From the NCBI RefSeq assembly GCF_001591165.1, contig NZ_BCUG01000021.1:1-64000 (forward strand): a stretch of DNA of 64,000 nucleotides, read 5' to 3'. Each line of letters opens with the position of its first letter. The first letter of the stretch is position 1. The notes under the pieces are model-generated. The model was given only the letters and a program-made list of their open reading frames with translations. It was not told where the DNA came from and ran no database searches. Position numbers and translations under genes: made by a program. Positions 22,390-38,027 of this stretch are shown piece after piece. Source of the DNA: Thauera butanivorans NBRC 103042 (lineage in GTDB: Bacteria; Pseudomonadota; Gammaproteobacteria; Burkholderiales; Rhodocyclaceae).

Positions 22390-23928
22390 ATGAACCTGCT
22401 TCGCGCCCTCGCCACCGTCAGCGGCATGACGCTGCTGTCCCGCATCCTCGGCTTCGTGCGCGACCTCGTCATCGCCCGCGCCTTCGGCGCCGGCATGGCC
22501 ACCGACGCCTTCTTCGTCGCCTTCCGCCTGCCCAACCTGCTGCGGCGGATGTTCGCCGAAGGTGCATTCTCGCAGGCTTTCGTGCCCATCCTGGCGGAGT
22601 ACAAGAACCGCCAGGGAGCAGAAGCCACCCACACGCTGGTCAGCCGCGTCGCCACCCTGCTCGGGCTGGCCGTCGCCCTCGTCGCTGCATTGGGCGCGCT
22701 GGCCGCGCCGCTGATCATCTATGTTTCGGCACCGGGCTTTTCGGGCGACCCCGGCAAGTTCGAGCTGACGGTCGAACTCACCCGCATCACCTTCCCCTAC
22801 ATCTTCTTCATGTCGCTGGTGGCGCTGGCCGGCGGCGTGCTCAACACCTGGAGCCGCTTCGCGATCCCGGCGTTCACGCCGGTGCTGCTGAACATCGCCT
22901 TCATCGGCATGGCGCTGTTCGCCGTTCCGTACTTCGACCCGCCGGTGCTGGCGCTGGCCTGGGCGGTATTCATCGGCGGCCTGCTGCAGTTGGCGCTGCA
23001 GATCCGGCCGCTGCGCAAGATCGGCATGCTGCCGCGCTTCGACCTCGATCTGTCGGACCCCGGCGTGCGCCGCATCCTGAAGCTGATGGCGCCGGCCATC
23101 CTCGGCGTCTCGGTCAGCCAGATCTCGCTGCTGATCAACACCATCTTCGCCTCCTTCCTCGAAAGCGGCAGCGTGTCCTGGCTGTACTACGCCGACCGCC
23201 TGATGGAATTCCCCGCCGGCCTGCTGGGCGTGGCGCTGGGGACGATCCTGCTGCCCAGCCTGTCCAAACTGCACGCCGACGAGAAGGCGGGCGAGTTCTC
23301 CTCGCTGCTCGACTGGGGGCTGCGCCTGACCTTGATGCTGACCCTGCCCGCCGCCCTGGGCCTGGCGCTGCTGGCGGTGCCGCTGGTGGCGACGCTGTTC
23401 AACTATGGCGCGTTCGGCGCCGGCGACGTGATGCAGACGCGCAGCGCGCTGGTCGCCTACAGCGTCGGCCTCACCGGCCTGATCCTGGTGAAAGTGCTGG
23501 CACCCGGCTTCTACGCCCGCCAGGACATCCGCACGCCGGTCAAGATCGCCATCGTCACGCTGATTGCCACCCAGTTGATGAACCTCGCCTTCATCGTGCC
23601 GCTGCGCCATGCCGGGCTGGCGCTGTCGATCGGGGTGGCGTCCTGCCTCAACGCCGGCCTGCTCTACCACGGCCTGCGCAAGCGCGGCGTCTATGTACCA
23701 CAAGCCGGCTGGGGCCTGTTCGCGCTCAAGCTGCTGGCCGCGCTGGCGGCGATGGGCGCGGTACTGTGGTTCGGCATGGGCGCGGAAACGCTGTGGGTCG
23801 AGATCGGCGGGCTGGAACGCGGCCTGCGCCTGGCTGCCGTGGTGCTTGCCGGCGCCACGGCCTATTTCGCCACGCTGTTCGCGCTCGGCTTCCGCCTGCG
23901 CGATTTCCGCCGCCACGGCGCCGTCTGA
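22390..23928 (+). CDS. murJ: Lipid II flippase MurJ (MviN)
   Basis: [35 protein letters not shown]...[28 protein letters not shown] is a canonical MurJ N-terminus. 512 aa polytopic. Confidence 0.95.
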
Positions 23929-23960
23929 GAAATGCGCAACAGCGATCGACGAGGCACGCC

Positions 23961-24881
23961 ATGAAGCTCTACTACGCCGACCATTTCGTGCTGCCGCTGC
24001 CGGAAGGCCATCGCTTTCCGATGGAGAAGTATTCGCGCCTGCGCGCCCGCCTGCTGGCCTGCGACGAATTCGACGAGATCGATTTCGTCGTGCCCGCCGC
24101 CGCCAGCGACGAGGAAATCCTGCGTGCGCACGACGCCGGCTATCTGGCGCGCGTCGTCGCCGGCACGCTGGATGCGGCAGAAGTCCGCCGCATCGGCTTT
24201 CCGTGGTCGGCGGCGATGGTCGAGCGTTCCCGCCGCTCGGCCGGCGCCACGCTCGCCGCCTGCCGCAGCGCACTGGCGGGCGACGGCGGCAGCGCCTGCG
24301 CCGCCAACCTGGCGGGCGGCACTCACCACGCCCACCGCGACTTCGGCTCAGGCTTCTGCGTCTTCAACGACGCCGCCATCGCCGCGCTGGCGATGCGCGC
24401 CGAAGGCCGGGTACGGCGCGTGGCGATCATCGACTGCGACGTACATCAGGGCGACGGTAGCGCCGCGATCCTCGCCGGCGAGCCGGAAGTCTTCACCTGC
24501 AGCCTGCACGGCGCGAAGAATTTCCCCTTCCGCAAGCAGACCAGCGACCTCGACATCGAGCTGCCTGACGACACCGGCGACGCCGCCTACCTGGCGGTAC
24601 TGGACCAGGCGCTGGCAACGACCTTCGCCCGCGCCCGCCCCGAACTCGTGATCTACCTCGCCGGCGCCGACCCCTATGCCGGCGACCGCCTCGGCCGCCT
24701 GGCGCTGAGCATCGACGGCCTGCGGGTGCGTGACGAGCGCGTGCTCGGCGCCTGCCACGGCGCCGGTGTGCCGGTCGCGATCGCGATGGCCGGCGGCTAC
24801 GCCGAGCCGATCGACGACACCGTCAGCATCCACTTCAACACCGTGACCACCGCCGCCCGCCTGCTGCGCAATGGCCGCTGA
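23961..24881 (+). CDS. Histone deacetylase-family amidohydrolase (AcuC/HDAC-like)
   Basis: Start MKLYYADHFVLPLPEGHRFPMEKY at 23961. GFCVFNDAAIA and IIDCDVHQGDG are HDAC zinc-site motifs. Confidence 0.8.
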   Translation: MKLYYADHFVLPLPEGHRFPMEKYSRLRARLLACDEFDEIDFVVPAAASDEEILRAHDAGYLARVVAGTLDAAEVRRIGFPWSAAMVERSRRSAGATLAACRSALAGDGGSACAANLAGGTHHAHRDFGSGFCVFNDAAIAALAMRAEGRVRRVAIIDCDVHQGDGSAAILAGEPEVFTCSLHGAKNFPFRKQTSDLDIELPDDTGDAAYLAVLDQALATTFARARPELVIYLAGADPYAGDRLGRLALSIDGLRVRDERVLGACHGAGVPVAIAMAGGYAEPIDDTVSIHFNTVTTAARLLRNGR

Positions 24882-24906
24882 ACGGCAGCCTGCGCAGGCA
24901 AGCGGG

Positions 24907-25761
24907 ATGCTGCTGATCGGCGTCGATTTCACCTCCGCACCACGCCGGGCCAAGCCGATCACTGCCGCTTTCGGCCGCCTCGCGGGCGAGGAGCCCCAAC
25001 AGAGGAGCGAACCGAGGGTCGAACTGACCGGCCTGGAAGCCTTCGACGACTGGCCCGCTTTCGAAGCCCTGCTCGCCCGTCCCGGCCCCTGGCTCGGCGC
25101 CTTCGATTTCCCCTTCGGCCTGCCGCGCGAAGCGGTCGTCGATCTCGGCTGGCCGCAAAGCTGGCCCGAGCTCGTCCGCCACTGCGCCGCCCTCGGCAAA
25201 GCCGGCTTCCGCGCCGCGCTCGACGCCTACCGTGAATCGCGCCCCGCCGGCCGCCGCTACGCGCACCGCGCCACCGACCTGCCGGCACGCTCGCATAGCC
25301 CGCTGAAGCTGGTGAATCCGCCGGTCGGGCTGATGTTCCTCGAAGGCGCCCCGCGCCTGCTCGCCGCCGGCCTCAGCCTGCCTGGCCTGCACACCGGCGA
25401 TCCGCAGCGGATCGCGCTGGAAGCCTATCCCGGCCTGCTTGCGCGCAGCATCACCCGCGACTCCTATAAAAGCGACGAAAAGCGCAAGCAGACGACCGAG
25501 CGCCGCAACGCCCGCGAGCGCATCCTTGCCGCTCTCGGCACGGGCCACCTGGCAAACGGCCTGCAACTGCAGTTCTCCCCCTCACAGGCCGGCAGCCTGA
25601 TCGACGACGCCAGCGGCGACCATCTCGATGCGGTACTTGCCCTGATGCAGGCAGCAGCCTGCGCACGCGCCGGCGCTCCCCGTTACGGCCTGCCGGCGCA
25701 GACCGATCCGCTCGAAGGCTGGATAGCCGGCACCCCCTATACCGGAAAACATCACATGTAA
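24907..25761 (+). CDS. DUF429 domain protein
   Basis: MLLIGVDFTSAPRRAKPIT resembles the DUF429 N-terminus. The ORF from 24871 overlaps the HDAC stop, so the likely start is ATG 24907. Confidence 0.6.
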   Translation: MLLIGVDFTSAPRRAKPITAAFGRLAGEEPQQRSEPRVELTGLEAFDDWPAFEALLARPGPWLGAFDFPFGLPREAVVDLGWPQSWPELVRHCAALGKAGFRAALDAYRESRPAGRRYAHRATDLPARSHSPLKLVNPPVGLMFLEGAPRLLAAGLSLPGLHTGDPQRIALEAYPGLLARSITRDSYKSDEKRKQTTERRNARERILAALGTGHLANGLQLQFSPSQAGSLIDDASGDHLDAVLALMQAAACARAGAPRYGLPAQTDPLEGWIAGTPYTGKHHM

Positions 25762-25784
25762 TCCCTTGCAGTATCACATGTGAT
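25751..25784 (+). promoter_or_regulatory. Putative operator: two ATCACATGT sites (25751 and 25773) 22 bp apart, the second inside the perfect palindrome ATCACATGTGAT, upstream of the yjfI-like cluster
   Basis: ATCACATGTAAT at 25751-25762 overlaps the DUF429 stop. ATCACATGTGAT at 25773-25784 is a perfect 12-bp palindrome. Both lie in the 40-bp gap before the cluster leader, next to a -10-like TAGAGT. Confidence 0.3.
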
Positions 25785-25990
25785 GCTCTAGAGTATGCCG
25801 CATGGAACGCAAGACATCAGCCTACTACCAACGCCTCCATCGCGCCCGTCTGCGTGAGCAAGGCCTGGTGAAGAAGGAGCTCTGGGTACTGCCCGAGCAC
25901 CTGGAAACGCTGTCCTCGATCGAAAAGAGCATGCGCCAGCCGCGGAGCGCGGCAGGTCTCGTACAACCAGGCCAGGAGAAGGAGAACACG

Positions 25991-26434
25991 ATGACGGAAA
26001 AAGCCCTGTGGACGGTCACCGCCCTGCACGACGCGCTGCGGAGCAACCCGCTGGTGGCTTCGGGCACGGCGCGGCTGGAACTGCTGGATGGCGCCGACCC
26101 CAGCCTGTTGCTGCAGATGCACGAATACGGCGACCTGCCGGTGTTCCTGGCGGTGGTCGGCGAGCACATCGTCGTCGAATCCCTGCTGTGGCCGGTGGCG
26201 CTGGTGCAGGACGTGGCGGTATTCAACGACCAGGTACTGCGCACCCACAAACTCTTCCCGCTGTCGAGCATCAGCATCGAGACCCTGCCCGACGGCGAGG
26301 AGGTCTACATCATGTTCGGCACCCTCAGCGCGGCATCGGGCCTGCCCGACGTGGTGCTCGAAATCGAGACCCTGGCCGACAACGTGATCCGCGCCACCGA
26401 AGCCTTCGAGCCGCAACTGCGCACGGCAGACTGA
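25991..26434 (+). CDS. DUF2170 (YjfI-like) protein
   Basis: MTEKALWTVTALHDA... is 147 aa, YjfI-family in size with a YIMFGTLSA motif. ATG 25991 is preceded by AGGAGAAGGAG. The ORF is open in-frame back to 25802 (63 extra codons), which could be a leader or an N-terminal extension. Confidence 0.65.
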   Translation: MTEKALWTVTALHDALRSNPLVASGTARLELLDGADPSLLLQMHEYGDLPVFLAVVGEHIVVESLLWPVALVQDVAVFNDQVLRTHKLFPLSSISIETLPDGEEVYIMFGTLSAASGLPDVVLEIETLADNVIRATEAFEPQLRTAD

Positions 26435-26471
26435 CGCAGCCAACCGACATTCAGACACCCGGAGAGCAAAG

Positions 26472-27164
26472 ATGAACATGTGGAGCAAGCTGGTGACCGC
26501 GCTGCGCGGCGGCGCACACGAATTGGGCGAAGCGGTGGTGGACGGCCAGGCGCTGCGCATTCTCGACCAGGAAATCCGCGACGCGGATGCCGACCTGCGG
26601 CGCTCGAAAGAAGCGCTGGCCGAGATCATGGCGAAGCAGAAGCTCGCCGAATCGCGCGTGAAGGAACAACAGGCCAGGATCGACGAATACGAGGACTACG
26701 CCATCAAGGCGCTCGAAGCGCAGGACGAGGCGCTGGCGCTGGAAGTCGCAGCCAAGATCGCCACGCTGGAAGCCAGCCGCAACGAGGAAAACGCAGTCGT
26801 TGAACAATACACCGCCAGCGTCGCCGACCTGCGCAAGTCCATCGCCCAGGCCGAGAGCCACATCAAGCGCCTGAAACAGCAGGTGGACATGGTGAAGGCG
26901 ACCGAAAGCGTGCAGCGCGCACAGGCCACCGTGGCCGAACGCTACAGCGGCGCGCAGACACGGGTGCAAACGGCGCTCGATTCGCTCGAACGCATCAAGC
27001 AGAAGCAGGCCGAACGCGGCGCGCGGATGCAGGCAGCGTCGGAGCTGGCACAGGAAAGCGGCGAGGATGCGCTCGACGCCAAACTGCGCAGCGCCGGCAT
27101 CTCCTCCGACACCGGCAGTGCCAACGCGGTGCTGGCACGGCTGAAGGAAAAGCGCGGCGCATGA
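26472..27164 (+). CDS. PspA/IM30-family protein (YjfJ-like)
   Basis: 230 aa, all-helical. LRILDQEIRDADADLRRSKEALAEIMAK...VDMVKATESVQRAQATVA...AVLARLKEKRGA closely parallels E. coli YjfJ and PspA/Vipp1. Confidence 0.85.
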   Translation: MNMWSKLVTALRGGAHELGEAVVDGQALRILDQEIRDADADLRRSKEALAEIMAKQKLAESRVKEQQARIDEYEDYAIKALEAQDEALALEVAAKIATLEASRNEENAVVEQYTASVADLRKSIAQAESHIKRLKQQVDMVKATESVQRAQATVAERYSGAQTRVQTALDSLERIKQKQAERGARMQAASELAQESGEDALDAKLRSAGISSDTGSANAVLARLKEKRGA

Positions 27165-27196
27165 GCTGTTGAAGACACCAGGCACGAGGGACGACC

Positions 27197-27835
27197 TTGG
27201 AAGCATTCCTGAACATTTCGCTTGCCTTTCCCACCGTGGTGTTCAGCTTCATGCTGGCCGTCATGGTGGTGTACTGGCTGATCGCGCTGCTGGGGCTGGC
27301 CGAGATCGAGCTGCTCGACAACCTCGCCCTGCCCGATGGCGACGGACTGCAACTGGAAGGGCTGGCGGGATTGCTGATGCGTCTGGGTCTGGCCGGCATT
27401 CCGCTGACCATCATCCTGACGGTGCTGGTGTTCTTCTGCTGGCTCATCAGCTACTACGCAGCCTGGTTGTTGTCTCCCCTGCTCGGCACAAGCGCAATGC
27501 GTTACCTGCTGGGCTCAGGCATCGCCGCCGGCGCCTTCCTCGCCGCGGTGCCGCTCACCTCGCTGGTGCTGCGGCCGGTGCGCGCCTTGCTGCGCAAGGC
27601 CGCGCCGCCAACCAGCAAAAGCCTGCTCGGCCAGGTCGGCGTGGTGCGCAGTCCCAGCGTGACCGCAGGGCAGGGCTACGCCTGGGTGGAAGACGGCGGC
27701 GCCGGCCTGATCCTGCAAGTGCGCAGTGCGACAGCAGAAGCTGAATTCCAGCGGGGTGCCCGGGTGATACTGATAGAATACGTCAATGACATGAATCTGT
27801 ACCGTGTCGTCGGCGAGGACGAATTCAGGGGCTGA
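27197..27835 (+). CDS. YqiJ-like inner membrane protein (DUF1449) with C-terminal NfeD-like OB-fold
   Basis: 212 aa. Multiple TM helices followed by a soluble segment, GQVGVVRSPSVTAGQGYAWVEDGGAGLILQVRSATAE...VILIEYVNDMNLYRVVG, typical of NfeD/YqiJ flotillin partners. Its stop TGA overlaps ATG 27835. Confidence 0.7.
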   Translation: MEAFLNISLAFPTVVFSFMLAVMVVYWLIALLGLAEIELLDNLALPDGDGLQLEGLAGLLMRLGLAGIPLTIILTVLVFFCWLISYYAAWLLSPLLGTSAMRYLLGSGIAAGAFLAAVPLTSLVLRPVRALLRKAAPPTSKSLLGQVGVVRSPSVTAGQGYAWVEDGGAGLILQVRSATAEAEFQRGARVILIEYVNDMNLYRVVGEDEFRG

Positions 27836-27903
27836 TGCCAGTCACATGCGACGAAACGTCCGGACTCCATGAACCAAGCAATGAACAAGCAGGGAGCATT
27901 TCA

Positions 27904-29967
27904 ATGAATCTGGCACAGGTCATGCCATTCCTGATCGGCGTGGGCACATTCGTACTGGTCGTGATCGGCCTTTTCGCGCTGTTCAAGGCCTTCTACATCA
28001 AGGTGCCGCAAGGCACGGCGCTGATCGTCAACGATCTGTCGGCGACACCCAAGGTGCATTTCACCGGCGCGCTGGTCTACCCGGTGATCTACAAGAAGGA
28101 GTTCATGCGGATCTCCCTGATCACGCTGGAAGTGGATCGGCGCGGCAAGGACGGCCTGATCTGCCGCGACAACATGCGCGCCGACATCACCGTGGCCTTC
28201 TACCTGCGCGTGAATGAAACCCAGGAAGACGTGCTGAAGGTCGCCAAGGCCATCGGCGTGGAGCGCGCATCGGACAAGGCGGCAGTCAACGAACTGTTCA
28301 ACGCCAAGTTCTCCGAGGCGCTGAAGACGGTCGGCAAGCAGATCGACTTCGTCAAGCTGTTCGAGAACCGCCAGGAATTCCGCGACCGCATCATCGAGGT
28401 GATCGGCAACGACCTCAACGGCTACGTCCTCGAGGACGTGGCGATCGACTACCTGGAGCAGACGCCAAAGGCCTCGCTCGACCCGCACAACATTCTCGAC
28501 GCCGAGGGCATCCGCAAGATCACCGAGCTGACCGCCGCGCAGAACATCATCACCAACGAACTCGAACGCAACGAGGAACTGGCGATCACCAAGAAGAACG
28601 TCGAGACGCGCGAAGCCATGCTCGCGCTGGAACGCCAGCAGGCCGACGCCGAAGCGCGGCAGAAGCGCGAAGTGGCGACCGTGCAGGCGCGCGAACAGGC
28701 CGAGATCCTGCGCGTGCAGGAAGAAGAACGCCTGAAGGCCGAGCAGGCGCGCATCCAGACCCAGGAACAGATCGACATCCGCGAGGAAAACGCCAACCGC
28801 GAAGTCGAGGTCGCCGAACAGAACCGCGAACGCGCCGTCGTCATCGAGAAGGAAAAGGTCGTGCGCGCGCAGCAACTGGAAATCGTCGCCCGCGAACGCG
28901 ACGTGGAACTCCAGCGCATCGAGAAGGAAAAGGCGCTGGAAGAGCAGCGCACCCACATCGCCAACGTGATCCGCGAACGCATCGCGGTCGAGAAGACCGT
29001 GGCAATCGAGGAAGAGCGCATCAAGGAAGTGCGCGAAGTGTCGGAAGCCGAACGCCTCAAGCAGGTGACGGTGCTGGCTGCGCAAGCCCAGGCGGAAGAG
29101 GAACTGGTGCGCCAGGTGAAGAAGGCCTCTGCCGACGAGGATTCGGCACGCCACCGCGCAGTGGAACTCACCGTGCTCGCGCAGGCCGAGCTGGAAGCTG
29201 CCGCCAAGCAGGCCGAAGCCAAGAAGAAGCTCGCCGAAGGCATCGAAGCCGAGCGCGCTGCACCAGGGCTGGCCGATGCACGCGTGCGCGAAGTGACTGC
29301 CGCGGCGATCGAGAAGGAAGGCATGGCCGCAGCGCATGTGACCGCCGAAAAACTGATCGCCGAAGCCAAGGGCGAGCAGGAAAAGGGCCTGGCGCAGGCG
29401 CGCGTCACCGAGGCACTGGCCGACGCCAAGGAGAAGGAAGGCCTGGCCGATGCCAAGGTCCTCGAAGAACGCCTGCTTGCCCAGGCGCGGGGCGAGAGCG
29501 AGCTCGGCGCAGCCAAGGCCAAGGTCACGCAGCAGGTCGGCGGAGCCGAGGCCGAAGTACTGCGCGAGAAGTTCATCGCCGAAGCCCAGGGCCTGGTGGA
29601 GAAATTCGCCGCGCTCGCCAGCCTCAGCGACAACGCCCGCGCCCACGAGGAATTCCGCATGCAGCTCGAGAAGAACTTCGAACAGGCGATCGCCGGCATC
29701 GATGCCAGCAAGCACATCGCCCGCGAGCAGGCCGAAGTGCTGTCGTCGGCGCTGTCCAAGGCCAACATCGACATCGTCGGCGGCGAAGGCGCCTTCTTCG
29801 ACCAGTTCGCCAAAGGCTTGTCGGTCGGCAAGTTCATCGAGGGCGTGGCCGGCAAGAGCCCCATCGTCGACGAGCTGCTGCAGCGCTTCACCAGCGGCGG
29901 CAAGGCAGACCTGCCCAGGGCGCTGGACCAGGCCACGGCGCCTGGGCAAGCCGACCGCAATTCGTGA
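27904..29967 (+). CDS. Flotillin-family SPFH/Band-7 protein (YqiK/FloT-like)
   Basis: N-terminal TM segment (LIGVGTFVLVVIGLFALF). SPFH domain (KVPQGTALIV...RADITVAFYLRVNE...). Long EA-rich coiled-coil flotillin tail. Start at ATG 27904 with GGGAG SD. An alternative coupled start is ATG 27835 (TGATG overlap with the upstream gene). Confidence 0.9.
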   Translation: MNLAQVMPFLIGVGTFVLVVIGLFALFKAFYIKVPQGTALIVNDLSATPKVHFTGALVYPVIYKKEFMRISLITLEVDRRGKDGLICRDNMRADITVAFYLRVNETQEDVLKVAKAIGVERASDKAAVNELFNAKFSEALKTVGKQIDFVKLFENRQEFRDRIIEVIGNDLNGYVLEDVAIDYLEQTPKASLDPHNILDAEGIRKITELTAAQNIITNELERNEELAITKKNVETREAMLALERQQADAEARQKREVATVQAREQAEILRVQEEERLKAEQARIQTQEQIDIREENANREVEVAEQNRERAVVIEKEKVVRAQQLEIVARERDVELQRIEKEKALEEQRTHIANVIRERIAVEKTVAIEEERIKEVREVSEAERLKQVTVLAAQAQAEEELVRQVKKASADEDSARHRAVELTVLAQAELEAAAKQAEAKKKLAEGIEAERAAPGLADARVREVTAAAIEKEGMAAAHVTAEKLIAEAKGEQEKGLAQARVTEALADAKEKEGLADAKVLEERLLAQARGESELGAAKAKVTQQVGGAEAEVLREKFIAEAQGLVEKFAALASLSDNARAHEEFRMQLEKNFEQAIAGIDASKHIAREQAEVLSSALSKANIDIVGGEGAFFDQFAKGLSVGKFIEGVAGKSPIVDELLQRFTSGGKADLPRALDQATAPGQADRNS

Positions 29968-30007
29968 CCCGCGGACAGACCCTGATCACACTGTGTCAGC
30001 AGTGAAA

Positions 30008-30100
30008 GTAGGATGGGTAGAGCGCAGCGAAACCCATCAATGGCAAAGGCAGAGTTTTTACCGATGTGATGGGTTTCGCCTTCGGCTCTACCCATCCTAC
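30008..30100. repeat. 93-bp imperfect inverted repeat (about 32-bp arms, 27-nt spacer) in the flotillin / giant-gene intergenic region
   Basis: Left arm gtaggatgggtagagc-gcag-cgaaacccatca (30008-30039). Right arm tgatgggtttcg-ccttcg-gctctacccatcctac (30067-30100). The arms are near-perfect reverse complements. Confidence 0.45.
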
Positions 30101-30241
30101 CCCGCCACTCCTGCAAAAGTATTCAGCAGGTAGGTCGCAGACTCCATACACGACACGTCACCCATCTCGCCGACACCCTCTTGCCTACCCCCATATCCGC
30201 CTTCAATTCAAGCAAGCCAATTCCCGAAGCGAAGAACGACG

Positions 30242-33200
30242 ATGTCCGACACCCTGCCCTCATCCGACTCCGCCCTCGTCGATCAGGCCGTCGCCAGCGG
30301 CGGCGCCTATGAAGTGCTGCGCAAGCGGCTGGCCGAACAAGGTGCCGGCTTGCGCGGCCTGGCGTCGCAGATCAACGCCGGCCGCATCGAGGAATTCGGC
30401 AGCAGCGGCATGGCCTTGCTGGGGCGCTTCCGCCTGCGCAGCGAGAACAACTGCGTCGGCCGCGACGTCGTGCAGGTCGGCGACACGCTGCTGTTCGGCT
30501 ACAACGTGTTCATCGGGCTGAAGCAGGAAACCCGCATCGAAGACGTGTTCTCGCTGTACCGGCTGGAAGAGACCGAGGCCGGCTACGACGTGGTGCCGCT
30601 CGACGCGGCGCAGAGTTTTCTCGGCATCACCAGCTTCGTGCAGGACTTCCGCGAGCTGTACACCTACTACAAGGACGCCCGCCTGCTGCAACTGGCGGTA
30701 CGCGACGGCAAGCTGCTGGCGAGCTTCCAGATCGGCGCGCGCATCACCGACATCCGCGTGTTCCGCTGGTCGGTGTCGCCCGATGGCCGCGAGGTGCGCT
30801 ACATCGACAACCGTGGCGAGCGCGACATCGCCCTGCCGGCACCGTTCGACTTCGAATGGATACGCGCCGGGCGCGACAGCGCGGTGCATGGCCGCCACCC
30901 GCACCTGAACATCCTCGACACCGTGTTCGTCGAGACCCTGGGCGGCGATCTCACCGTCAAGGTGGAAAACAACACCGAGGACGGCATGGGCATCTACCGC
31001 GAAGCGGTGGTGGACAAGACCCAGTCGCTCGACGACGCCACGGTGGAATACGCCCGCGTCGGCAGCCTGATCCTGCTCAAGATCCTGCCGTATCGCGAAG
31101 AGCAGTGGCGCTATCTGGTGTTCAACACGCTGACGCAGAAGGTGCAGCGCATCGACGCCATCGGCCTGGCCTGCATCCAGTTGCCGGAAGACCACGGCAT
31201 CATCTTCCCCGGCGGCTATTACTTGCAGAACGGCGAAAGCAAGGCCTTCGAGCAGCAGATGGAAGGCATGCGCTACCGCCGCAGCATCCGTTCGCCCAAC
31301 GGCGAAGACGTGCTGTACGTGTTCTACGAGCCGCACAGCGGCCGCATGGCGCTGTTCAACTACAACCTCATCGAGCGGCAGTTGCAGGCGCCGCTGATCG
31401 GCCACGGCTACGCGCGGCTGGAAGACGGGCGCATGGTGTTGTTCAGCTCCGAATCCGACGAGCCAACACGCATCCATCCGATGCAGGTGTGGCGCACGCC
31501 CTTCTTCAGCGAGGAGTTCGCCGCACGCCAGGCGCCCGGCGGCAACTTCTTCGGCCGCATCGGCAACGCCGAACTGGTGCGCGGCATCTCCGAACTGTTC
31601 AGCCTGGTGCGCGAGATCGGCGCCGCGGAAGTGTCGGTGCAGCGCTACCAGCGGCTCATCGACCAGGCGCGGCGGCTGTTCGACCGCTATCACTGGATGG
31701 CCGAAGCCTGCGACGGCGCGCTGGCCCGGACGCTGCACGAGATCGTCGCCTCGGGCGAAGCGGTGCTCGACGAATTCGAGAAAGTCGAAAGCATCCGCGC
31801 CGCCTCGGCGCGCGCAATGGCCGAAGCCGAAACCCGCCACAAGGCCTTGCTGACACAATTGCGCCAGCAGGATTGGAAGCACGTGCAGGACTACGTGCAG
31901 GCGCTGCAGCGCATCGCCGCCGAGCGCGGCCACCTGCTCAGCGTGCGCGACCTGCGCTACGTCGACACCGCGCGCATCGACGCGATGGAAAGCGAGCTGC
32001 TCGCCAGCCAGGCCAGCGTGGCCGCCGACACCGCCGCGTTCCTGTCCAGCGAGGAAGCGCTGCTGCCCTATGGCGAGCGCCTCGCCGAACTCGACCAGCA
32101 GGCGCAGAAGGCCGACACCGGCATGCAGCTGGACGAACCGCTGCAGGCCATGCAGGCGATGTCCGGCGAACTCGACATGCTGTCCGAACTGATGGCCACC
32201 CTCAAGGTGGATGACGCCACCCAGCGCACCCGTATCGTCGAGGCCATCTCGGCCATCTACGCGCGCCTCAACCAGGCCAAGGCGCGCGCCGAGCAGCGCC
32301 GCCGCGGCCTCGGCGCCAGCGAACGGGTGGCGCAGTTCGGCGCGCAGTTCTCGCTGTTCGGCCAGAGCATCGTCAGCGCCTTGGCGCTGGCGCAGGACCC
32401 GGAACGCTGCGACGAACAATTGTCGCGCCTGCTGATCCAGCTCGAAGAGCTGGAAAGCCAGTTCGGCGAGCACGAGGCCTTTCTTGGCGACATCGTCGCC
32501 AAGCGCGAAGAACTGCTGGAGAGCTTCGAAAGCCACAAGCAATCCTTGCTGGATGAGCGCCAGCGCAAGGCACAGTCGGTGCAGGACGCCGCCGTGCGCA
32601 TTGTCGATGGCCTGGGCCGGCGCACCGAGCGGCTGGCGACGCTGGACGAACTGAACGCCTTCTTCGCCGGCGATCCGCTGATCCTCAAGTTGCGCGAACT
32701 GGCCGAGCGGCTGCGCGAACTCAAGGACAGCGTCAAGGCCGACGACGTCGAGGCGTGCCTCAAGGGCGTGCGCGACCAGGCGGTACGCTCGCTGCGCGAC
32801 CGCAGCGAGCTGTTCGAGGGCGGCGGCAACGTGATCCGCCTGGGCCGCCACCGCTTCAGCGTCAACAACCAGGTGCTCGACCTCACGCTGATGCCGCGCG
32901 GCGACACGCTGTACCTGCATCTGGTCGGCACCGACTACATGGAAGCGCTGCACGACCCGCAACTGGCCGCGCTGCGGCCGTTCTGGGACGTGTCGCTGGC
33001 CTCAGAGTCGCCGCAACTGTACCGCGGCGAATATCTGGCGCTGCAAGTCATCGATGCCGCCGAGCGGCAGGCCGACGGCTGGGACCGCGACCAGTTGCAC
33101 CGCCTGCTGCTGCAACCCGAGGCGCTCGACCGCGCGCTGCGCGAATTCGCTGCGCCGCGCTACCGCGAAGGCTACGAGCGCGGCATCCACGACCACGACG

Positions 33201-35599
33201 CCGCGCGCATCCTGCGGGCCTTGGTGCCGATGCGCGAAGCCGCCGGCGTGCTCGCCACGGCACCGGACGCGCGGGCGCTGGCGGTGCTGTTCTGGGGGCA
33301 GCGCAACCAGGTGCTCAACCCCGAGGCCAGCGCCGCGCTGGCGCAATGGCCGGCGCGGGCCCGCCATGCAATAGACATGCGGCGGCTGTTCGGCAGCGCG
33401 GCTGCCCGCCGCAGCCTGGTGGACGACATGGCCGCGGCGCTGCGGACCTTCATCGAGCAGCACGCGCTCGCCATCGACCCCGCATTGAGTGCGCCGGCAG
33501 CCGACTACCTGCTGAGCGAGCTGGGTGATGCGGCTCCGCGTTTCAGCTTCACCGGGCAGGCGCGGCAACTGGTGGAAGCGCTGCAGGCACGGCTGGAGGC
33601 CGACGGGCGCTGGAGCGGTCTGCTGCAGGACTGGCGCCACAGCGCCGGCGACGGCCTGCCGCTGGCAGCGCGCTGGCAAAGCGCGCTGCAATGGGCGCAG
33701 GCACTGTGTGCCGCGTCCGGCGATGCCAACGCCGGGTTGGCCGCGCTCGGCGACTACGCCAGCGAGGCCGCCGCCTGGCTGGTGGCGGCCGAGGCCGTGC
33801 CGCACCGCTTCAGCAGCGTGGCCTTGCGCGCCAGCGTGACCGGCCTGCTCGGCGAGCACCCGCGCATCGTCGATGGCGCACTGGTGCTGGCGGTGGACGA
33901 CGTGGCACGGCGCGAGCACTGGCACCGCCACGAATTCATGCCGCAGCTGCAACGCTACCAGCAGTTGCGCCACGACATCCTGGTGCGCGAGCGCGAGGCG
34001 ATGCGGCTGGACGAGTTCAAGCCGCGCCCGCTCAGCAGCTTCGTGCGCAACAAGCTGATCAACGACGTCTATCTGGGCGTGATCGGCGACAACCTCGCCA
34101 AACAGATGGGCACCGCCGGCAGCAACAAGCGCAGCGACCTGATGGGCCTGCTGATGATGATCTCGCCACCCGGCTACGGCAAGACCACGCTGATGGAATA
34201 CGTGGCGCACCGCCTCGGGCTGATCTTCATGAAGATCAACGGCCCGGCGCTGGGCCACGAGGTGCGCTCGCTCGACCCGGCCCAGGCACCCGACGCCACC
34301 TCGCGCCAGGAGCTGGAAAAGCTCAACCTGGCGCTGGAAATGGGCAACAACGTGATGCTGTATGTGGACGACATCCAGCACACCCACCCGGAATTCCTGC
34401 AGAAGTTCATCTCGCTGTCGGACGGCACGCGCCGCATCGAGGGTGTATGGAAAGGGCGCACGCGCACCTACGACATGCGCGGCAAGAAATTCTGCGTGGT
34501 GATGGCCGGCAACCCCTACACCGAATCCGGCGAGGTCTTCAAGATTCCCGACATGCTCGCCAACCGCGCCGACATCTACAACCTCGGCGACGTGCTGGGC
34601 GGCATGGAGGAAGTGTTCAAACTCAGCTACATCGAGAACAGCCTCACCAGCAACCCGGTGCTGGCGCCGCTGGCTACGCGCGACCTGAACGATCTCTACC
34701 GCATCATCGACAAGCTGCAAGGCAAGGAATTTTCCGCCAACGCGCTCAGCCACGGCTACAGTGCCGCCGAACTGCGCGACATCGAAACCACGCTGCAGCG
34801 CATGCTGCAGGTGCGCGAAGTGGTCTATCGCATCAACCAGCAATACATCGCCAGCGCCGCCCAGGCCGAGGCCTACCGCACGGAGCCGCCGTTCAAGCTG
34901 CAAGGCTCCTACCGCAACATGAACAAGCTAGCGGAAAAGATCTCGGCGGTAATGAACGACGCCGAGCTCCAGCAATTGCTGGCCGACCACTACGTCGGCG
35001 AGGCCCAACTGCTCACCAGCGGGGCGGAGGAAAACCTGCTCAAGCTCGCCGAACTTCGCGGCAGCCTGAGAGGCGACGATGCCGTTCGCTGGGCACAGAT
35101 CAAGCGTGACTACCTGCGCAACAAGGCCATCGGCGGCAGCGACGCCGACGTCGCCGGCAAGATCGTCGTGCAATTGATGGACCTGGTCGAAGCCACCCGC
35201 CACACCGCCGCACTGGCCGAACAGGCGGCCACTCGGCCCGAGGAAGCACTACCCTGGGCGGAAATCCTCGCTGCCCTGCTGCAATCGGCCAAGGCACAGA
35301 CCCAGCAGGCCCGCCACGTCGCCGCGCTGGCCCGTGCGAGAACCAGCCAGCCGCTACAGACCCTCGCTACCTTGCTCCAGCAATCCCTGGAACCGATCCG
35401 GACCCACCTGGACGAAAGCCGCAAGCAGCAGCTCGGCCTTCACCGCGTATTGCTGGAAATCGCCGAACGCCTGCGCGTGGTCGCCGAGGCCGAAGCATCC
35501 GGCGCCACCCAAGACAGCGAGCGCAAGCTGCGCTTGCTGGATCGCGCCTTCGCCCGCATGCTCGAAGAAGACACACACCCTGGAGAGAATGCGGGTTGA
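30242..35599 (+). CDS. Giant multidomain protein (1785 aa): N-terminal domain of unknown function, long helical/coiled-coil middle, single C-terminal AAA+ ATPase module (AAA_5/MoxR/dynein-like)
   Basis: Walker A MMISPPGYGKTTLMEY (about aa 1310). Walker B NVMLYVDDIQ. Sensor/arginine region FCVVMAGNPYTESGEVFKIPDMLANRADIYNL resembles AAA_5-type modules. Even codon usage over 5.3 kb. The antisense ORFs are Arg/Ala/Gly-rich noise. Confidence 0.8.
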   Translation: MSDTLPSSDSALVDQAVASGGAYEVLRKRLAEQGAGLRGLASQINAGRIEEFGSSGMALLGRFRLRSENNCVGRDVVQVGDTLLFGYNVFIGLKQETRIEDVFSLYRLEETEAGYDVVPLDAAQSFLGITSFVQDFRELYTYYKDARLLQLAVRDGKLLASFQIGARITDIRVFRWSVSPDGREVRYIDNRGERDIALPAPFDFEWIRAGRDSAVHGRHPHLNILDTVFVETLGGDLTVKVENNTEDGMGIYREAVVDKTQSLDDATVEYARVGSLILLKILPYREEQWRYLVFNTLTQKVQRIDAIGLACIQLPEDHGIIFPGGYYLQNGESKAFEQQMEGMRYRRSIRSPNGEDVLYVFYEPHSGRMALFNYNLIERQLQAPLIGHGYARLEDGRMVLFSSESDEPTRIHPMQVWRTPFFSEEFAARQAPGGNFFGRIGNAELVRGISELFSLVREIGAAEVSVQRYQRLIDQARRLFDRYHWMAEACDGALARTLHEIVASGEAVLDEFEKVESIRAASARAMAEAETRHKALLTQLRQQDWKHVQDYVQALQRIAAERGHLLSVRDLRYVDTARIDAMESELLASQASVAADTAAFLSSEEALLPYGERLAELDQQAQKADTGMQLDEPLQAMQAMSGELDMLSELMATLKVDDATQRTRIVEAISAIYARLNQAKARAEQRRRGLGASERVAQFGAQFSLFGQSIVSALALAQDPERCDEQLSRLLIQLEELESQFGEHEAFLGDIVAKREELLESFESHKQSLLDERQRKAQSVQDAAVRIVDGLGRRTERLATLDELNAFFAGDPLILKLRELAERLRELKDSVKADDVEACLKGVRDQAVRSLRDRSELFEGGGNVIRLGRHRFSVNNQVLDLTLMPRGDTLYLHLVGTDYMEALHDPQLAALRPFWDVSLASESPQLYRGEYLALQVIDAAERQADGWDRDQLHRLLLQPEALDRALREFAAPRYREGYERGIHDHDAARILRALVPMREAAGVLATAPDARALAVLFWGQRNQVLNPEASAALAQWPARARHAIDMRRLFGSAAARRSLVDDMAAALRTFIEQHALAIDPALSAPAADYLLSELGDAAPRFSFTGQARQLVEALQARLEADGRWSGLLQDWRHSAGDGLPLAARWQSALQWAQALCAASGDANAGLAALGDYASEAAAWLVAAEAVPHRFSSVALRASVTGLLGEHPRIVDGALVLAVDDVARREHWHRHEFMPQLQRYQQLRHDILVREREAMRLDEFKPRPLSSFVRNKLINDVYLGVIGDNLAKQMGTAGSNKRSDLMGLLMMISPPGYGKTTLMEYVAHRLGLIFMKINGPALGHEVRSLDPAQAPDATSRQELEKLNLALEMGNNVMLYVDDIQHTHPEFLQKFISLSDGTRRIEGVWKGRTRTYDMRGKKFCVVMAGNPYTESGEVFKIPDMLANRADIYNLGDVLGGMEEVFKLSYIENSLTSNPVLAPLATRDLNDLYRIIDKLQGKEFSANALSHGYSAAELRDIETTLQRMLQVREVVYRINQQYIASAAQAEAYRTEPPFKLQGSYRNMNKLAEKISAVMNDAELQQLLADHYVGEAQLLTSGAEENLLKLAELRGSLRGDDAVRWAQIKRDYLRNKAIGGSDADVAGKIVVQLMDLVEATRHTAALAEQAATRPEEALPWAEILAALLQSAKAQTQQARHVAALARARTSQPLQTLATLLQQSLEPIRTHLDESRKQQLGLHRVLLEIAERLRVVAEAEASGATQDSERKLRLLDRAFARMLEEDTHPGENAG

Positions 35600-36174
35600 G
35601 CCGCATCAGCAAGACGATGAAACCCCTGCTTCCCGAATGGCTCCACCCCTGGCTCGAATTCATCACGCTCGGCCTGCAGGTCATGCTGATCCTGCTCGCC
35701 GCCTGGGTGCTGAACATGCTGGTCCGGCGCATCGTCCGCCGCCTGAGCGAGCGCTACAACCTGCCTCCCGAGCTGACCCTCATCGTGCGCCGAGGCATCG
35801 CATTCATCATCTATGCCGGCGCGCTGCTGACGATCCTGGACCGCTTCGGCGTGTCGGGCACCGTGCTGTGGACCGCCTTCACCGGCTTTGCCGCAGTCGC
35901 CGCCGTCGCCTTCTTCGCCGCCTGGAGCGTGCTGTCCAACATCTTCTGCACGCTGCTGATCTTCACCACCCGGCCCTTCCGCCTCCACGATCACATCGAG
36001 GTGATCGAGAACGGCGAGAAGCCCGGACTGAAGGGACAGGTGACCGACATCAACCTGATCTACACCACGCTGCACGAGCGCCTGCCCGACGGCGGCGACA
36101 CCGTGCTGCACATCCCCAACAGCCTGTTCTTCCAGCGCGCGATCCGCCGCTGGCGCAGCCTGCCGCCGCTTTGA
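35596..36174 (+). CDS. Short MscS-family mechanosensitive channel protein (192 aa)
   Basis: AAWSVLSNIFCTLLIFTTRPFRLHDHIEVIENGEKPGLKGQVTDINLIYTTLHERLPDGGDTVLHIPNSLFF matches the MscS pore helix TM3 plus beta-domain. TTG start 35596 overlaps the giant gene's TGA (TTGA). An alternative ATG is at 35617. Confidence 0.8.
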   Translation: MSRISKTMKPLLPEWLHPWLEFITLGLQVMLILLAAWVLNMLVRRIVRRLSERYNLPPELTLIVRRGIAFIIYAGALLTILDRFGVSGTVLWTAFTGFAAVAAVAFFAAWSVLSNIFCTLLIFTTRPFRLHDHIEVIENGEKPGLKGQVTDINLIYTTLHERLPDGGDTVLHIPNSLFFQRAIRRWRSLPPL

Positions 36175-36197
36175 GCCAGACTGTCCGGCGGACGTGA

Positions 36198-36536
36198 TCA
36201 AGCCTTGCGCACGAACTCCGACTTCAGCTTCATCGCGCCAATGCCGTCGATCTTGCAGTCGATGTCGTGGTCGCCGTCGATCAGGCGGATGTTCTTGACC
36301 TTGGTGCCGACCTTCACCACCAGCGACGAGCCCTTCACCTTCAGGTCCTTGATCACGGTGACGCTGTCGCCGTCCTGCAGCACGTTGCCATTGGCGTCCT
36401 TGAACACCTTTTCGGCCTCGCCCGCTTCCTCCGCGGCTTGCGGCCACTCGTGCGCACATTCGGGGCAGACGTAGTTGATGCCGTCCTCGTAGGTGTATTC
36501 GGAGCTGCATTCGGGACACTTGGGCAGACTGCTCAT
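36198..36536 (-). CDS. phnA: PhnA-family zinc-ribbon protein (YjdC-like)
   Basis: [31 protein letters not shown]...[36 protein letters not shown] is near-identical in pattern to E. coli PhnA. 112 aa. Confidence 0.85.
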
Positions 36537-36547
36537 GCTTCTTTCCT

Positions 36548-37270
36548 TTATTCGATCGTGATCCGCATCGACGGCGCCGGCAGGCCCCTGCGCTTGCGCT
36601 CGGCCTCGATCAGTTTGGCGATGTCGGTGTTGCGGTTCTGCAGCGCCCAGGCGTCGGCGGACAGGCCGGCGTCGTTCAGCGCGTTCAGGTCGGTCTCCGG
36701 CACTGCGAGCAGGCGGCGCACCACGCCGATATGGCCGTTGCGCGCGGCAAGCATCAGCGGCGTGGCACGGTTCGGTGCCCGGGCATTGACGTCCGCGCCG
36801 GCGGCGAACAGTGCATCGAGCATGGATTCGCGGCCCTCGAAGGCGGCGTAGTGCAGCGGCGCCCAACCGTCGTGATTCACTTTGGCACCGGCCTTCAGCA
36901 GCGCGCGGACGACATCGTCGTAGCCGCCCAGCACCGCCAGCATCAGCGCCGAATCGCCGCTGGGGTTTTGCTGGTCGATCGGCACGCCGCGCTGCAGCAA
37001 GGCTTCGACCGTGGCGGCCTGGCCTTCGCGTGCGGCGAGGATCAGCAAGGTGTTGCCGCTGGCATCGACGCTGTTCGGATCGATGCCGCCGTCGATCAGC
37101 CTGGCGAGGCCTTTCGCATCGCCCAGCACGGCGGCGTTGCGCGCATCGTCGAAGGTGCCGGCCGCATGCGCGCTCAGGCTGAGGGTGGCGATGGCGGCCG
37201 CGGCGAGCAGGCGGCGGACCGAATGCTTGCGATTCTGGCGCAGGGAGGTTTCAGGCTGGTCTTTGTGCAT
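36548..37270 (-). CDS. Ankyrin-repeat protein with signal peptide
   Basis: [18 protein letters not shown] signal peptide, then repeated ANK motifs ([48 protein letters not shown]). Start ATG 37270. Confidence 0.8.
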
Positions 37271-38027
37271 GGTGGAAAAGTCGGAAGAAGTTGTCGGTAC
37301 AGGCCTGTTCGATGCGGGCCAGCGGTTCGTCGCGCAGGCGGGCGATTTCTTCGGCGACATGCACGACCCAGGCGGGCTCGTTGGTCCTGCCGCGATGCGG
37401 CACCGGTGCCAGATAGGGCGCATCGGTCTCGATCAGCAGGCGGTCGAGCGGCACACGGCGGGCGACCTCCTTCAGTTCCCTGGCGTTGCGGAAGGTGACG
37501 ATGCCGGAGAAGGAAATGTAGAAACCCAGCTCGAGCGCGGCGTCGGCCACGTCCTGGCTTTCGGTGAAGCAGTGCATGACGCCACCGGCCTCGCCGGCCT
37601 TTTCCTCGCGCATCAGCCGCAGCGTGTCCTCGGCGGCGCTGCGGGTATGGATGACGAGCGGCTTGCCGGTTTCGCGCGCGGCGCGGATGTGGGTGCGGAA
37701 GCGCTCGCGCTGCCATTCGGGCGCGTCCTTCTGCCAGTGGTAGTCCAGGCCGGTCTCGCCGATGGCGACCACCTTGGGATGGTCGGCCAGCGCGACCAGG
37801 CGGGCGACGTCTGGCTCATCGCAGTCGGCATTGTCGGGATGCACGCCCACCGAAGCCCACAGGTGTGGATGCCGCTCGGCCAGCGCGCGCACCTGCGGAA
37901 AATCCTCGAGCTTGACGCTGATGCACAGCGCGGTGCCGACGTCGTTGGCCGCCATGTTGGCGAGCACTTCGTCCTCGCGGGCGATGAGATCGGGAAAATC
38001 GAGATGGCAGTGGGAATCGACGAACAT
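37251..38027 (-). CDS. tatD: TatD-family metal-dependent DNase/hydrolase (YcfH-like)
   Basis: MFVDSHCHLDF...IGETGLDYH...PLVIHTR...LLIETDAPYL are canonical TatD motifs. Start ATG 38027. Confidence 0.9.
   Translation of the reverse strand: MFVDSHCHLDFPDLIAREDEVLANMAANDVGTALCISVKLEDFPQVRALAERHPHLWASVGVHPDNADCDEPDVARLVALADHPKVVAIGETGLDYHWQKDAPEWQRERFRTHIRAARETGKPLVIHTRSAAEDTLRLMREEKAGEAGGVMHCFTESQDVADAALELGFYISFSGIVTFRNARELKEVARRVPLDRLLIETDAPYLAPVPHRGRTNEPAWVVHVAEEIARLRDEPLARIEQACTDNFFRLFHHAQRPA

Follow-up and report, generated by a model that had tools for sequence, protein, structure and literature searches.

A BacE-family AAA+ protein encoded with a YqiK-type flotillin in Thauera butanivorans

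A 64,000-nucleotide (nt) stretch of Thauera butanivorans NBRC 103042 (contig NZ_BCUG01000021.1; hereafter the window) carries at positions 30242-35599 a gene for a 1785-amino-acid (aa) protein with a single AAA+ ATPase module. The product is almost certainly a BacE-family protein in a bac-type gene context. The explanation that best accounts for the data as a whole joins this identity to an ATP-driven remodelling of flotillin and PspA assemblies, and we put its probability at about 0.55. An earlier note on this DNA had taken the protein to be of an unknown type. Its sequence places it in a known family instead, that of the domains DUF3686 and DUF7902, of the database name 'DNA repair ATPase' and of BacE from Pseudomonas aeruginosa (PMC10948618). 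The note had also raised the possibility of a known family with known partners; this holds here only as far as placement in a family goes.

BacE proteins are about 1,700 residues long, have thousands of members in at least four phyla, including a major pathogen, and are biochemically uncharacterised. The architecture of BacE and its class of operon were already described by Ravi et al. 2024, who proposed a role in membrane dynamics (PMC11237479), a description made by comparative genomics only. The window protein adds little alone; the family had been named and analysed earlier, and the operon had been studied in P. aeruginosa.

Family placement and domain anatomy

30242..35599, plus strand: bacE-like gene for a 1785-aa soluble DUF3686-DUF7902-AAA+ protein (Pfam matches and homologue search)

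The open reading frame (ORF) starts with the ATG at 30242, runs for 1785 codons without interruption and ends with the stop codon at 35599. Its length alone is no proof of a gene, since in this GC-rich genome bacE is overlapped by long antisense ORFs, one of them of 900 aa (30260-32962, minus strand). However, homologues are numerous, which identifies bacE as a real gene rather than a chance high-GC ORF: a search of a 5.8-billion-protein collection (E ≤ 1e-5) returned at least 5783 homologues and, together with the open frame, establishes the 1785-aa protein of the earlier note. The best 120 of these at least 5783 homologues cover at least 92% of the query, bar one at 60%, and the alignment with homologues begins at residue 1. 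Relatives include a protein from a Rhodocyclaceae metagenome-assembled genome (79% identical) and the P. aeruginosa orthologue (P0041; 67% over 98% of the length), which was equated with PA3728 by the gene order given in papers. BacE is soluble and has no transmembrane (TM) segment; the highest 19-residue Kyte-Doolittle mean is 1.34 and no hydrophobic stretch resembles a membrane span.

The cluster of BacE homologues that contains the P. aeruginosa protein has 3,222 member sequences, and a search with the DUF3686 domain retrieved 724 representatives of 50%-identity clusters. Full-length representatives, defined as proteins of at least 1450 aa from 50%-identity clusters with propeller identity down to about 31%, number 69 and span 1496-2036 aa (median 1685, most 1600-1900). 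The family extends over Pseudomonadota, Actinomycetota, Deinococcota and Bacteroidota, with Niabella among the names of distant clusters, and the layout of DUF3686, DUF7902 and AAA+ recurs in Streptomyces and Deinococcus proteins. Nearly all named homologues (P0002-P0240) are labelled 'DNA repair ATPase' in databases, a function of which we found no evidence. The name is most probably a misnomer, a misannotation propagated over thousands of entries, and we infer that it stems from the coiled-coil resemblance to SbcC/Rad50-type proteins. A literature search on DUF3686 yielded no papers, and PA3728 appears in gene lists only.

The structure was modelled with AlphaFold2 (AF2) as two overlapping halves from a 53-sequence alignment of Proteobacteria and Streptomyces, giving a mean predicted local distance difference test (pLDDT) score of 84 for the N-terminal and 79 for the C-terminal half. 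BacE consists of an N-terminal helix, a predicted beta-propeller (DUF3686), helical bundles including DUF7902, an all-alpha domain, the AAA+ module and a variable tail. The main parts are the following.

30407..31501, plus strand: predicted beta-propeller, DUF3686 core (aa 56-420; about 28 strands in AF2; Foldseek)
32054..32305, plus strand: Pfam DUF7902 (aa 605-688; E 1.7e-28, 99 bits against a cut-off of 26), within the helical region aa 442-857
32954..33991, plus strand: compact all-alpha domain (aa ~905-1250; AF2 pLDDT mostly >90), with no relative detectable among solved structures
34109..34951, plus strand: AAA+ module (aa 1290-1570), with alpha/beta core aa 1290-1470, lid aa 1471-1570 and a pre-sensor-1 beta-hairpin at aa 1398-1411
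34163..34189, plus strand: Walker A motif SPPGYGKTT (aa 1308-1316), K1314 and T1315 invariant
34355..34378, plus strand: Walker B motif MLYVDDIQ (aa 1372-1379), D1376-D1377 invariant, with Asp-Asp where Asp-Glu is usual

The first 470 residues had seemed free of any recognised motif. Pfam DUF3686 ('ATPase involved in DNA repair') in fact covers aa 37-484 with full profile coverage (E 6.9e-202, 671 bits against a cut-off of 25). In the AF2 model, a helix at aa 21-52 is followed by about 28 beta-strands between aa 58 and 418. Foldseek matched this beta region in the Protein Data Bank (PDB) to beta-propellers only (WD40 proteins, paraoxonase and prolyl oligopeptidase; best E 6.7e-6, 7-13% identity), and DUF3686 is therefore predicted to be a divergent beta-propeller, which by its strand count may have roughly seven blades.

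The middle of the protein (aa 470-1280) had been read as one coiled coil. It is helical as proposed, but it is not a single coiled coil and comprises a helical arm, a beta unit and a globular alpha domain. Between aa 442 and 857, helices of 15-58 residues with short breaks form hairpins or bundles in the predicted secondary structure, the term 'helical bundles' resting on the DSSP strings of the model. A small beta unit lies at aa 872-895 and precedes the all-alpha domain, which is joined to the AAA+ core by a linker helix; further helices run to the C-terminus. Fold searches with the all-alpha domain (aa 905-1250) and with the helical arm returned no informative match, the AAA module and the propeller filling the match lists. 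Among the folded parts of the family, the all-alpha domain is the least conserved (25% identity). The C-terminal helical tail described earlier resolves into the AAA lid and a conserved helical segment up to about aa 1640, followed by a non-conserved part, aa 1641-1785, with 7% identity and 54% gaps across representatives. Three features go beyond the description in PMC11237479, namely the all-alpha domain with its compact fold, the hairpin before sensor 1 and the invariant Asp-Asp of Walker B.

The AAA+ module is single and intact, with one AAA match and one Walker A motif, and both Walker motifs are found where they had been read. The segment that had been likened to an arginine-finger/sensor region, CVVMAGNPYTESGEVFKIPDMLANRADIY (CVVMAGNP...ANRADIY; aa 1418-1446), contains the invariant sensor-1 residue N1424 in 'AGNP' and, as candidate arginine finger, R1442 in 'ANRAD', which falls where RuvB and MoxR proteins have theirs. 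R1558 in 'GSYRN' occupies the sensor-2 position. Walker A, Walker B, sensor 1, arginine finger and sensor-2 Arg thus follow each other in the canonical order on an AAA+ fold. Degenerate AAA motifs, which the earlier note had considered, were not found: none of the 53 aligned sequences departs from K1314, T1315, D1376, D1377, N1424, R1442 or R1558, and PPGxGK[TS], DD[IV]Q and GNP each occur in 68 of the 69 full-length representatives. Across 65 representatives, identity to the window protein is 70% in the AAA core, 44% in the propeller, 25% in the alpha domain and 7% in the last 145 residues. The AAA+ site is under strong selection, with the AAA core as the best-conserved part of the protein.

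Within the AAA+ superfamily, BacE belongs to the pre-sensor-1-hairpin group and is, by a small margin, nearest to MoxR/AAA_5, in agreement with the affinity suggested before. Pfam AAA_5 matches aa 1304-1431 (24.5 bits against a cut-off of 22, E 2.9e-5, 126 of 139 profile positions). PF00004 (AAA) is also above its cut-off, but only over aa 1305-1353 (profile positions 2-38 of 131). In the AF2 model, the hairpin is formed by strands aa 1398-1403 and 1406-1411 between alpha3 and beta4. BacE shares with MoxR proteins (NorQ, CbbQ) and midasin the AAA_5 match, this hairpin, the 'GNP' sensor 1 and a later Arg in 'xxNRxD'. It differs from them by an identity of 12-17%, the Asp-Asp in Walker B and a 1,290-residue N-terminal extension. 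A helix-2 insert is not evident in the model, where a coil (aa 1338-1351) leads into an unbroken helix (aa 1352-1367) at moderate confidence. A VWA/MIDAS partner, typical of MoxR systems, was not detected, as no VWA match occurs among the cluster genes in the window or in the related loci. Unlike dynein and midasin with six AAA modules each, BacE has one, and its helical regions flank the module rather than being inserted in it, so that the dynein-like, linear mechano-enzyme envisaged earlier finds no support.

Structural neighbours of the AAA module in Foldseek are Skd3, RuvB and NorQ, at E-values of only 1e-3 to 1e-2. Sequence searches of the PDB, with the single sequence and with a 53-sequence profile, aligned no more than some 45 residues at the P-loop of RuvB; hence BacE is without a solved relative. 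RuvB itself was rejected as an identity, since RuvB_N reaches 19.6 of the 27 bits required and NCBIfam RuvB 20 of 282, with the alignment confined to those P-loop residues. NCBIfam gave only sub-threshold RuvB and CDC48 P-loop matches.

Gene context

BacE is encoded last in a co-directional series of five genes, which corresponds to the operon of Ravi et al. 2024 in that all five components are present with the predicted features (PMC11237479). The genes around it are the following.

25802..26434, plus strand: bacA-like, DUF2170/CesT-Tir-like chaperone-regulator, first in the cluster (Pfam DUF2170 E 2.2e-47)
26472..27164, plus strand: bacB-like, PspA/IM30 protein of the ESCRT-III superfamily (Pfam PspA_IM30 E 2.9e-53)
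27197..27835, plus strand: bacC-like, multi-TM protein with a putative C-terminal NfeD/YqiJ-like soluble domain (hydrophobic segments, then a soluble domain in the translation)
27835..29967, plus strand: bacD-like, YqiK-type flotillin with a TM helix, an SPFH domain and a Glu/Ala-rich coiled coil (hhalign against YqiK)
35596..36174, plus strand: 192-aa TM protein with an MscS beta-domain (Pfam MS_channel_2nd E 1e-7), overlapping the bacE stop codon

With 315 bits, BacA exceeds the 300-bit cut-off of the NCBIfam equivalog 'biofilm formation regulator BacA'. BacD escapes searches of Pfam (including Band_7), NCBIfam and PDB sequences, even with a 10-sequence profile. Comparison of its profile with E. 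coli YqiK by hhalign gave a probability of 99.9% (E 5e-31, 33% identity over 393 columns), so that the 710-aa ORF upstream of bacE is a flotillin, as the earlier note had it; the Streptomyces orthologue is annotated 'flotillin family protein'. For BacC, BLASTP against E. coli YqiJ was not significant (E 16), and its counterparts show a weak NfeD match in Deinococcus (E 0.008) and a weak YqiJ_N match in Flammeovirga. The assigned bacD start at 27835 is probably too early, as the Met at 27907 still precedes the TM helix; the ATG at this position (MNLAQV...), 24 codons downstream, is probably the true start.

To assess how far this arrangement is conserved, neighbours were identified by tblastn in 82 loci, of which 80 came from scanning a single genome per species and two were plasmid hits. 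Upstream of BacE and in the same order, BacA was found in 76, BacB in 77, BacC in 79 and BacD in 81 of the 82 loci, and the whole gene order is identical in 76. Only a triad remains in seven loci from six distant sources (a Deinococcus plasmid, a Streptomyces plasmid, Vibrio with two loci of identical gene content, Flammeovirga and two metagenomic contigs). It comprises a protein of 144-212 aa, a flotillin of 650-710 aa and the ATPase, and PspA is missing within 8-10 kilobases. The abbreviated flotillin/TM/ATPase operons described in PMC11237479 were thereby recovered in Deinococcus, Streptomyces, Vibrio and Flammeovirga. BacE is thus obligatorily tied in genomes to a flotillin of the YqiK type and to a small, putatively NfeD/YqiJ-like membrane protein, and its link to PspA and the CesT-like protein is specific to a lineage, the Beta- and Gammaproteobacteria including the window.

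The best-studied counterpart is bacABCDEF of P. aeruginosa, the 'biofilm-associated cluster' (PMC10948618), with which the window shares a 67% identical BacE, its Pfam layout and the four upstream genes in their order. In strain PA14, reverse-transcription polymerase chain reaction showed co-transcription from bacA to bacF through PA14_16190 (bacE) and PA14_16200 (bacF), and when bacA is mutated, the levels of BacB to BacF rise 6- to 13-fold (PMC10948618). A short NfeD is encoded by PA14_16160, and the flotillin PaFlo3, the counterpart of BacD, by PA14_16180 (PMC13086221). PA3728-PA3732 are induced in every phage-infected sample (PMC12041424), and we count this co-regulation in favour of the function proposed below. 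PA3728 was mutated in three independent cystic-fibrosis adaptation studies (PMC8190622). The two clusters differ in the last ~145 residues of BacE, which are unrelated, and in the sixth gene, which encodes the MscS-beta-domain protein here and a rhomboid-domain protein after bacE in Pseudomonas loci.

The gene after bacE is variable in general: a rhomboid, a PLDc_2 and an SF1 helicase gene follow in Ectopseudomonas, PLDc_2 in Lysobacter, and TelA lies nearby in Vibrio and one metagenomic contig. The variable stretches after bacE were located at 15214-19176 in L045, 15360-16103 in L010, 13001-14221 in L084 and 13502-14608 in L085. The phospholipase-D gene noted in some Proteobacteria (PMC11237479) is absent from the window. 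The MscS-like neighbour pointed out before does have a weak MscS beta-domain match, but it is not a conserved partner, with a homologue in none of the 82 loci. The encoded protein is a 192-aa mini MscS-like protein of TM helices and beta-domain only.

Proposed function and alternatives

Cages of SPFH proteins commonly pair with AAA+ machines; HflK/C does so with FtsH, and prohibitin works with the m-AAA protease. BacE resembles these systems in the genetic coupling of an SPFH scaffold to an AAA+ protein at the membrane and in the presence of putative NfeD-type partners. It departs from FtsH and the m-AAA protease by having neither a TM anchor nor a protease domain and by an AAA module outside the classical clade of FtsH. 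We tentatively propose, with rather less than even confidence, that BacE uses ATP to remodel flotillin assemblies and, wherever they occur, PspA polymers at the cytoplasmic face of the inner membrane under envelope stress. As no neighbours other than the flotillin and the small TM protein are universal, the flotillin is more likely the primary partner and PspA a lineage-specific addition.

In the proposed mechanism, BacE would form a ring via its AAA+ domain, with R1442 as a trans-acting arginine finger; conservation of such an arginine would imply an oligomer, be it a ring or not. At the tip of the long helical arm, the propeller would bind flotillin assemblies from their cytoplasmic side and, in Proteobacteria, PspA as well. 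Binding and hydrolysis of ATP would then remodel the membrane-bound polymers in envelope stress, by assembly, disassembly or recycling. A more detailed picture, in which six propeller-tipped arms of a ring AAA+ grip flotillin cages and, in Proteobacteria, PspA polymers and dismantle or reshape them, making BacE a convergent counterpart both of Vps4 and of FtsH in HflK/C, is doubtful. If BacE remodels flotillin/PspA assemblies, this would explain how bacteria turn over membrane scaffolds without Vps4.

Several points weigh against a remodelling ATPase. In P. aeruginosa, the biofilm phenotype of a paFlo3 (bacD) deletion is only marginal (PMC13086221). The propeller is a partner-binding module only in so far as we infer it. 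An aromatic pore-loop motif was not found after beta2 (to alpha2), where the sequence is NGPALGHEV; threading in the style of Vps4/ClpB is therefore not indicated. The Asp-Asp of Walker B runs through the family, so that hydrolysis may be slow or the protein a nucleotide switch. Finally, AF2 pLDDT falls below 50 at the P-loop strand (aa 1291-1310) and at the sensor-1/arginine-finger segment (aa 1425-1452). Since confidence is lowest there, the modelled details of the P-loop and arginine finger should not be over-read. Nowhere is the protein more conserved than in these two stretches of lowest pLDDT; both may become ordered only in the oligomer or with nucleotide. Taken together, the missing pore loop and the Asp-Asp Walker B suggest a conformational remodeller or switch in the style of MoxR/RuvB rather than a threading unfoldase.

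The alternatives differ in what they make of PspA, of the Walker B motif and of the neighbours. BacE might be a dedicated disassembly factor for PspA polymers, a functional analogue of Vps4 for which flotillin and NfeD are a mere membrane platform. The PspA gene lies in the co-directional cluster in 77 of the 82 proteobacterial loci, PspA belongs to the ESCRT-III superfamily on which Vps4 acts, and bacteria have no known Vps4-like ATPase according to reviews (PMC7619361). The outline of recognition module, helical linker and AAA+ module also resembles Vps4, a likeness of function and not of homology. However, the seven distant loci, from six sources in four phyla or clades, carry the flotillin triad without PspA nearby, so that PspA is not the universal partner, a role that falls to flotillin. 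BacE moreover belongs to another AAA+ clade than the classical one of Vps4 and katanin (the PF00004 match being confined to aa 1305-1353), has no MIT, Vps4_C or AAA_lid_3 match in Pfam and lacks the aromatic pore loop of Vps4. We thus regard a dedicated PspA disassembly factor as unlikely. BacE could also be a non-motor nucleotide switch or scaffold, which binds ATP with little hydrolysis and controls the assembly of a flotillin coat with its helices as spacers. This would suit the family-wide replacement of the catalytic Walker B Glu by Asp (DD[IV]Q in 68 of 69 representatives) and the more than 1,200 residues of non-enzymatic propeller and helical domains. It fits poorly with the invariant sensor-1 Asn, arginine finger and sensor-2 Arg, which are expected of a hydrolysing, ring-forming AAA+ protein, and Asp can serve as the catalytic base in some P-loop NTPases; a pure switch accordingly has a slim chance of being right.

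A role in conflict, as an anti-phage system of the abortive-infection type with membrane-protein effectors, would be in line with the variable downstream genes, PLD-like (PLDc_2) and SF1 helicase in Ectopseudomonas, PLD-like in Lysobacter and TelA elsewhere. It would also be in line with the location of some bacE copies on large plasmids and with PA3728-PA3732 being among the 17 genes up in all phage-infected samples (PMC12041424). Such induction is equally expected of a general envelope-stress (phage-shock) response, no PADLOC model matches (best LmuB, E 0.07 and 0.28, weak coiled-coil; mad8, E 0.78), and bacE is core and syntenic within genera, with the order kept in 76 of 82 loci, unlike patchy defence islands. 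We therefore consider a defence function very improbable. Scarcely credible, in turn, is the DNA repair ATPase of SMC/Rad50/SbcC type that the databases suggest. Apart from the NCBI/UniRef name and the description of DUF3686 in Pfam, it can draw on the weak P-loop similarity to RuvB (E 3e-4 to 6e-3 over about 45 residues), whose scores are far under the cut-offs. Walker A and B lie 60 residues apart in one AAA+ domain with no coiled-coil split, neither NCBIfam nor Pfam yields a Rad50, SbcC or SMC match, no DNA-binding domain was found, and the conserved neighbours are all membrane proteins. An ATP-driven remodeller of flotillin, with PspA in Proteobacteria, remains our preferred reading of BacE.

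Flanking genes, regulatory signals and repeats

The genes on either side of the cluster are the following.

22390-25761, plus strand: MurJ, a histone-deacetylase-family protein and a DUF429 protein (upstream flank)
36198-37423, minus strand: YjdM/PhnA and an ankyrin-repeat protein (downstream flank)

Because none of these flanking genes (MurJ to DUF429; YjdM/PhnA and ankyrin) was found near bacE in the 82 related loci, we set the boundaries of the cluster at bacA and the gene after bacE.

Regulation of the cluster in Thauera may differ from that of P. aeruginosa bacA. Unlike PA14, for which a sigma-54 site was proposed (PMC10948618), the window has no -24/-12 element before bacA: the 100 nt before the gene contain no site resembling TGGCAC-N5-TTGC, and 32 such sites occur window-wide against 35.6 expected. 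A scan of 25400-37000 for sigma-70 promoters and terminators gave no promoter-like sites and terminator-like sites not above those in shuffled sequences, neither signal exceeding chance in the intergenic stretches of the cluster, and Rfam had no matches in the whole window. Upstream of the bacA start (25739-25796), an inverted repeat of 24 nt, imperfect and with CATCACATGT...ACATGTGATG at its core, has the appearance of an operator.

A further repeat lies in the spacer between bacD and bacE (29968-30241).

30008..30100, no strand assigned: nested perfect inverted repeat (16-nt and 13-nt arms), occurring once in the window

Its outer arms, GTAGGATGGGTAGAGC and GCTCTACCCATCCTAC (16 nt), enclose the inner pair GCGAAACCCATCA and TGATGGGTTTCGC (13 nt). 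The repeat could be an element resembling repetitive extragenic palindromes (REP) or miniature inverted-repeat transposable elements (MITE), or a hairpin in the mRNA.

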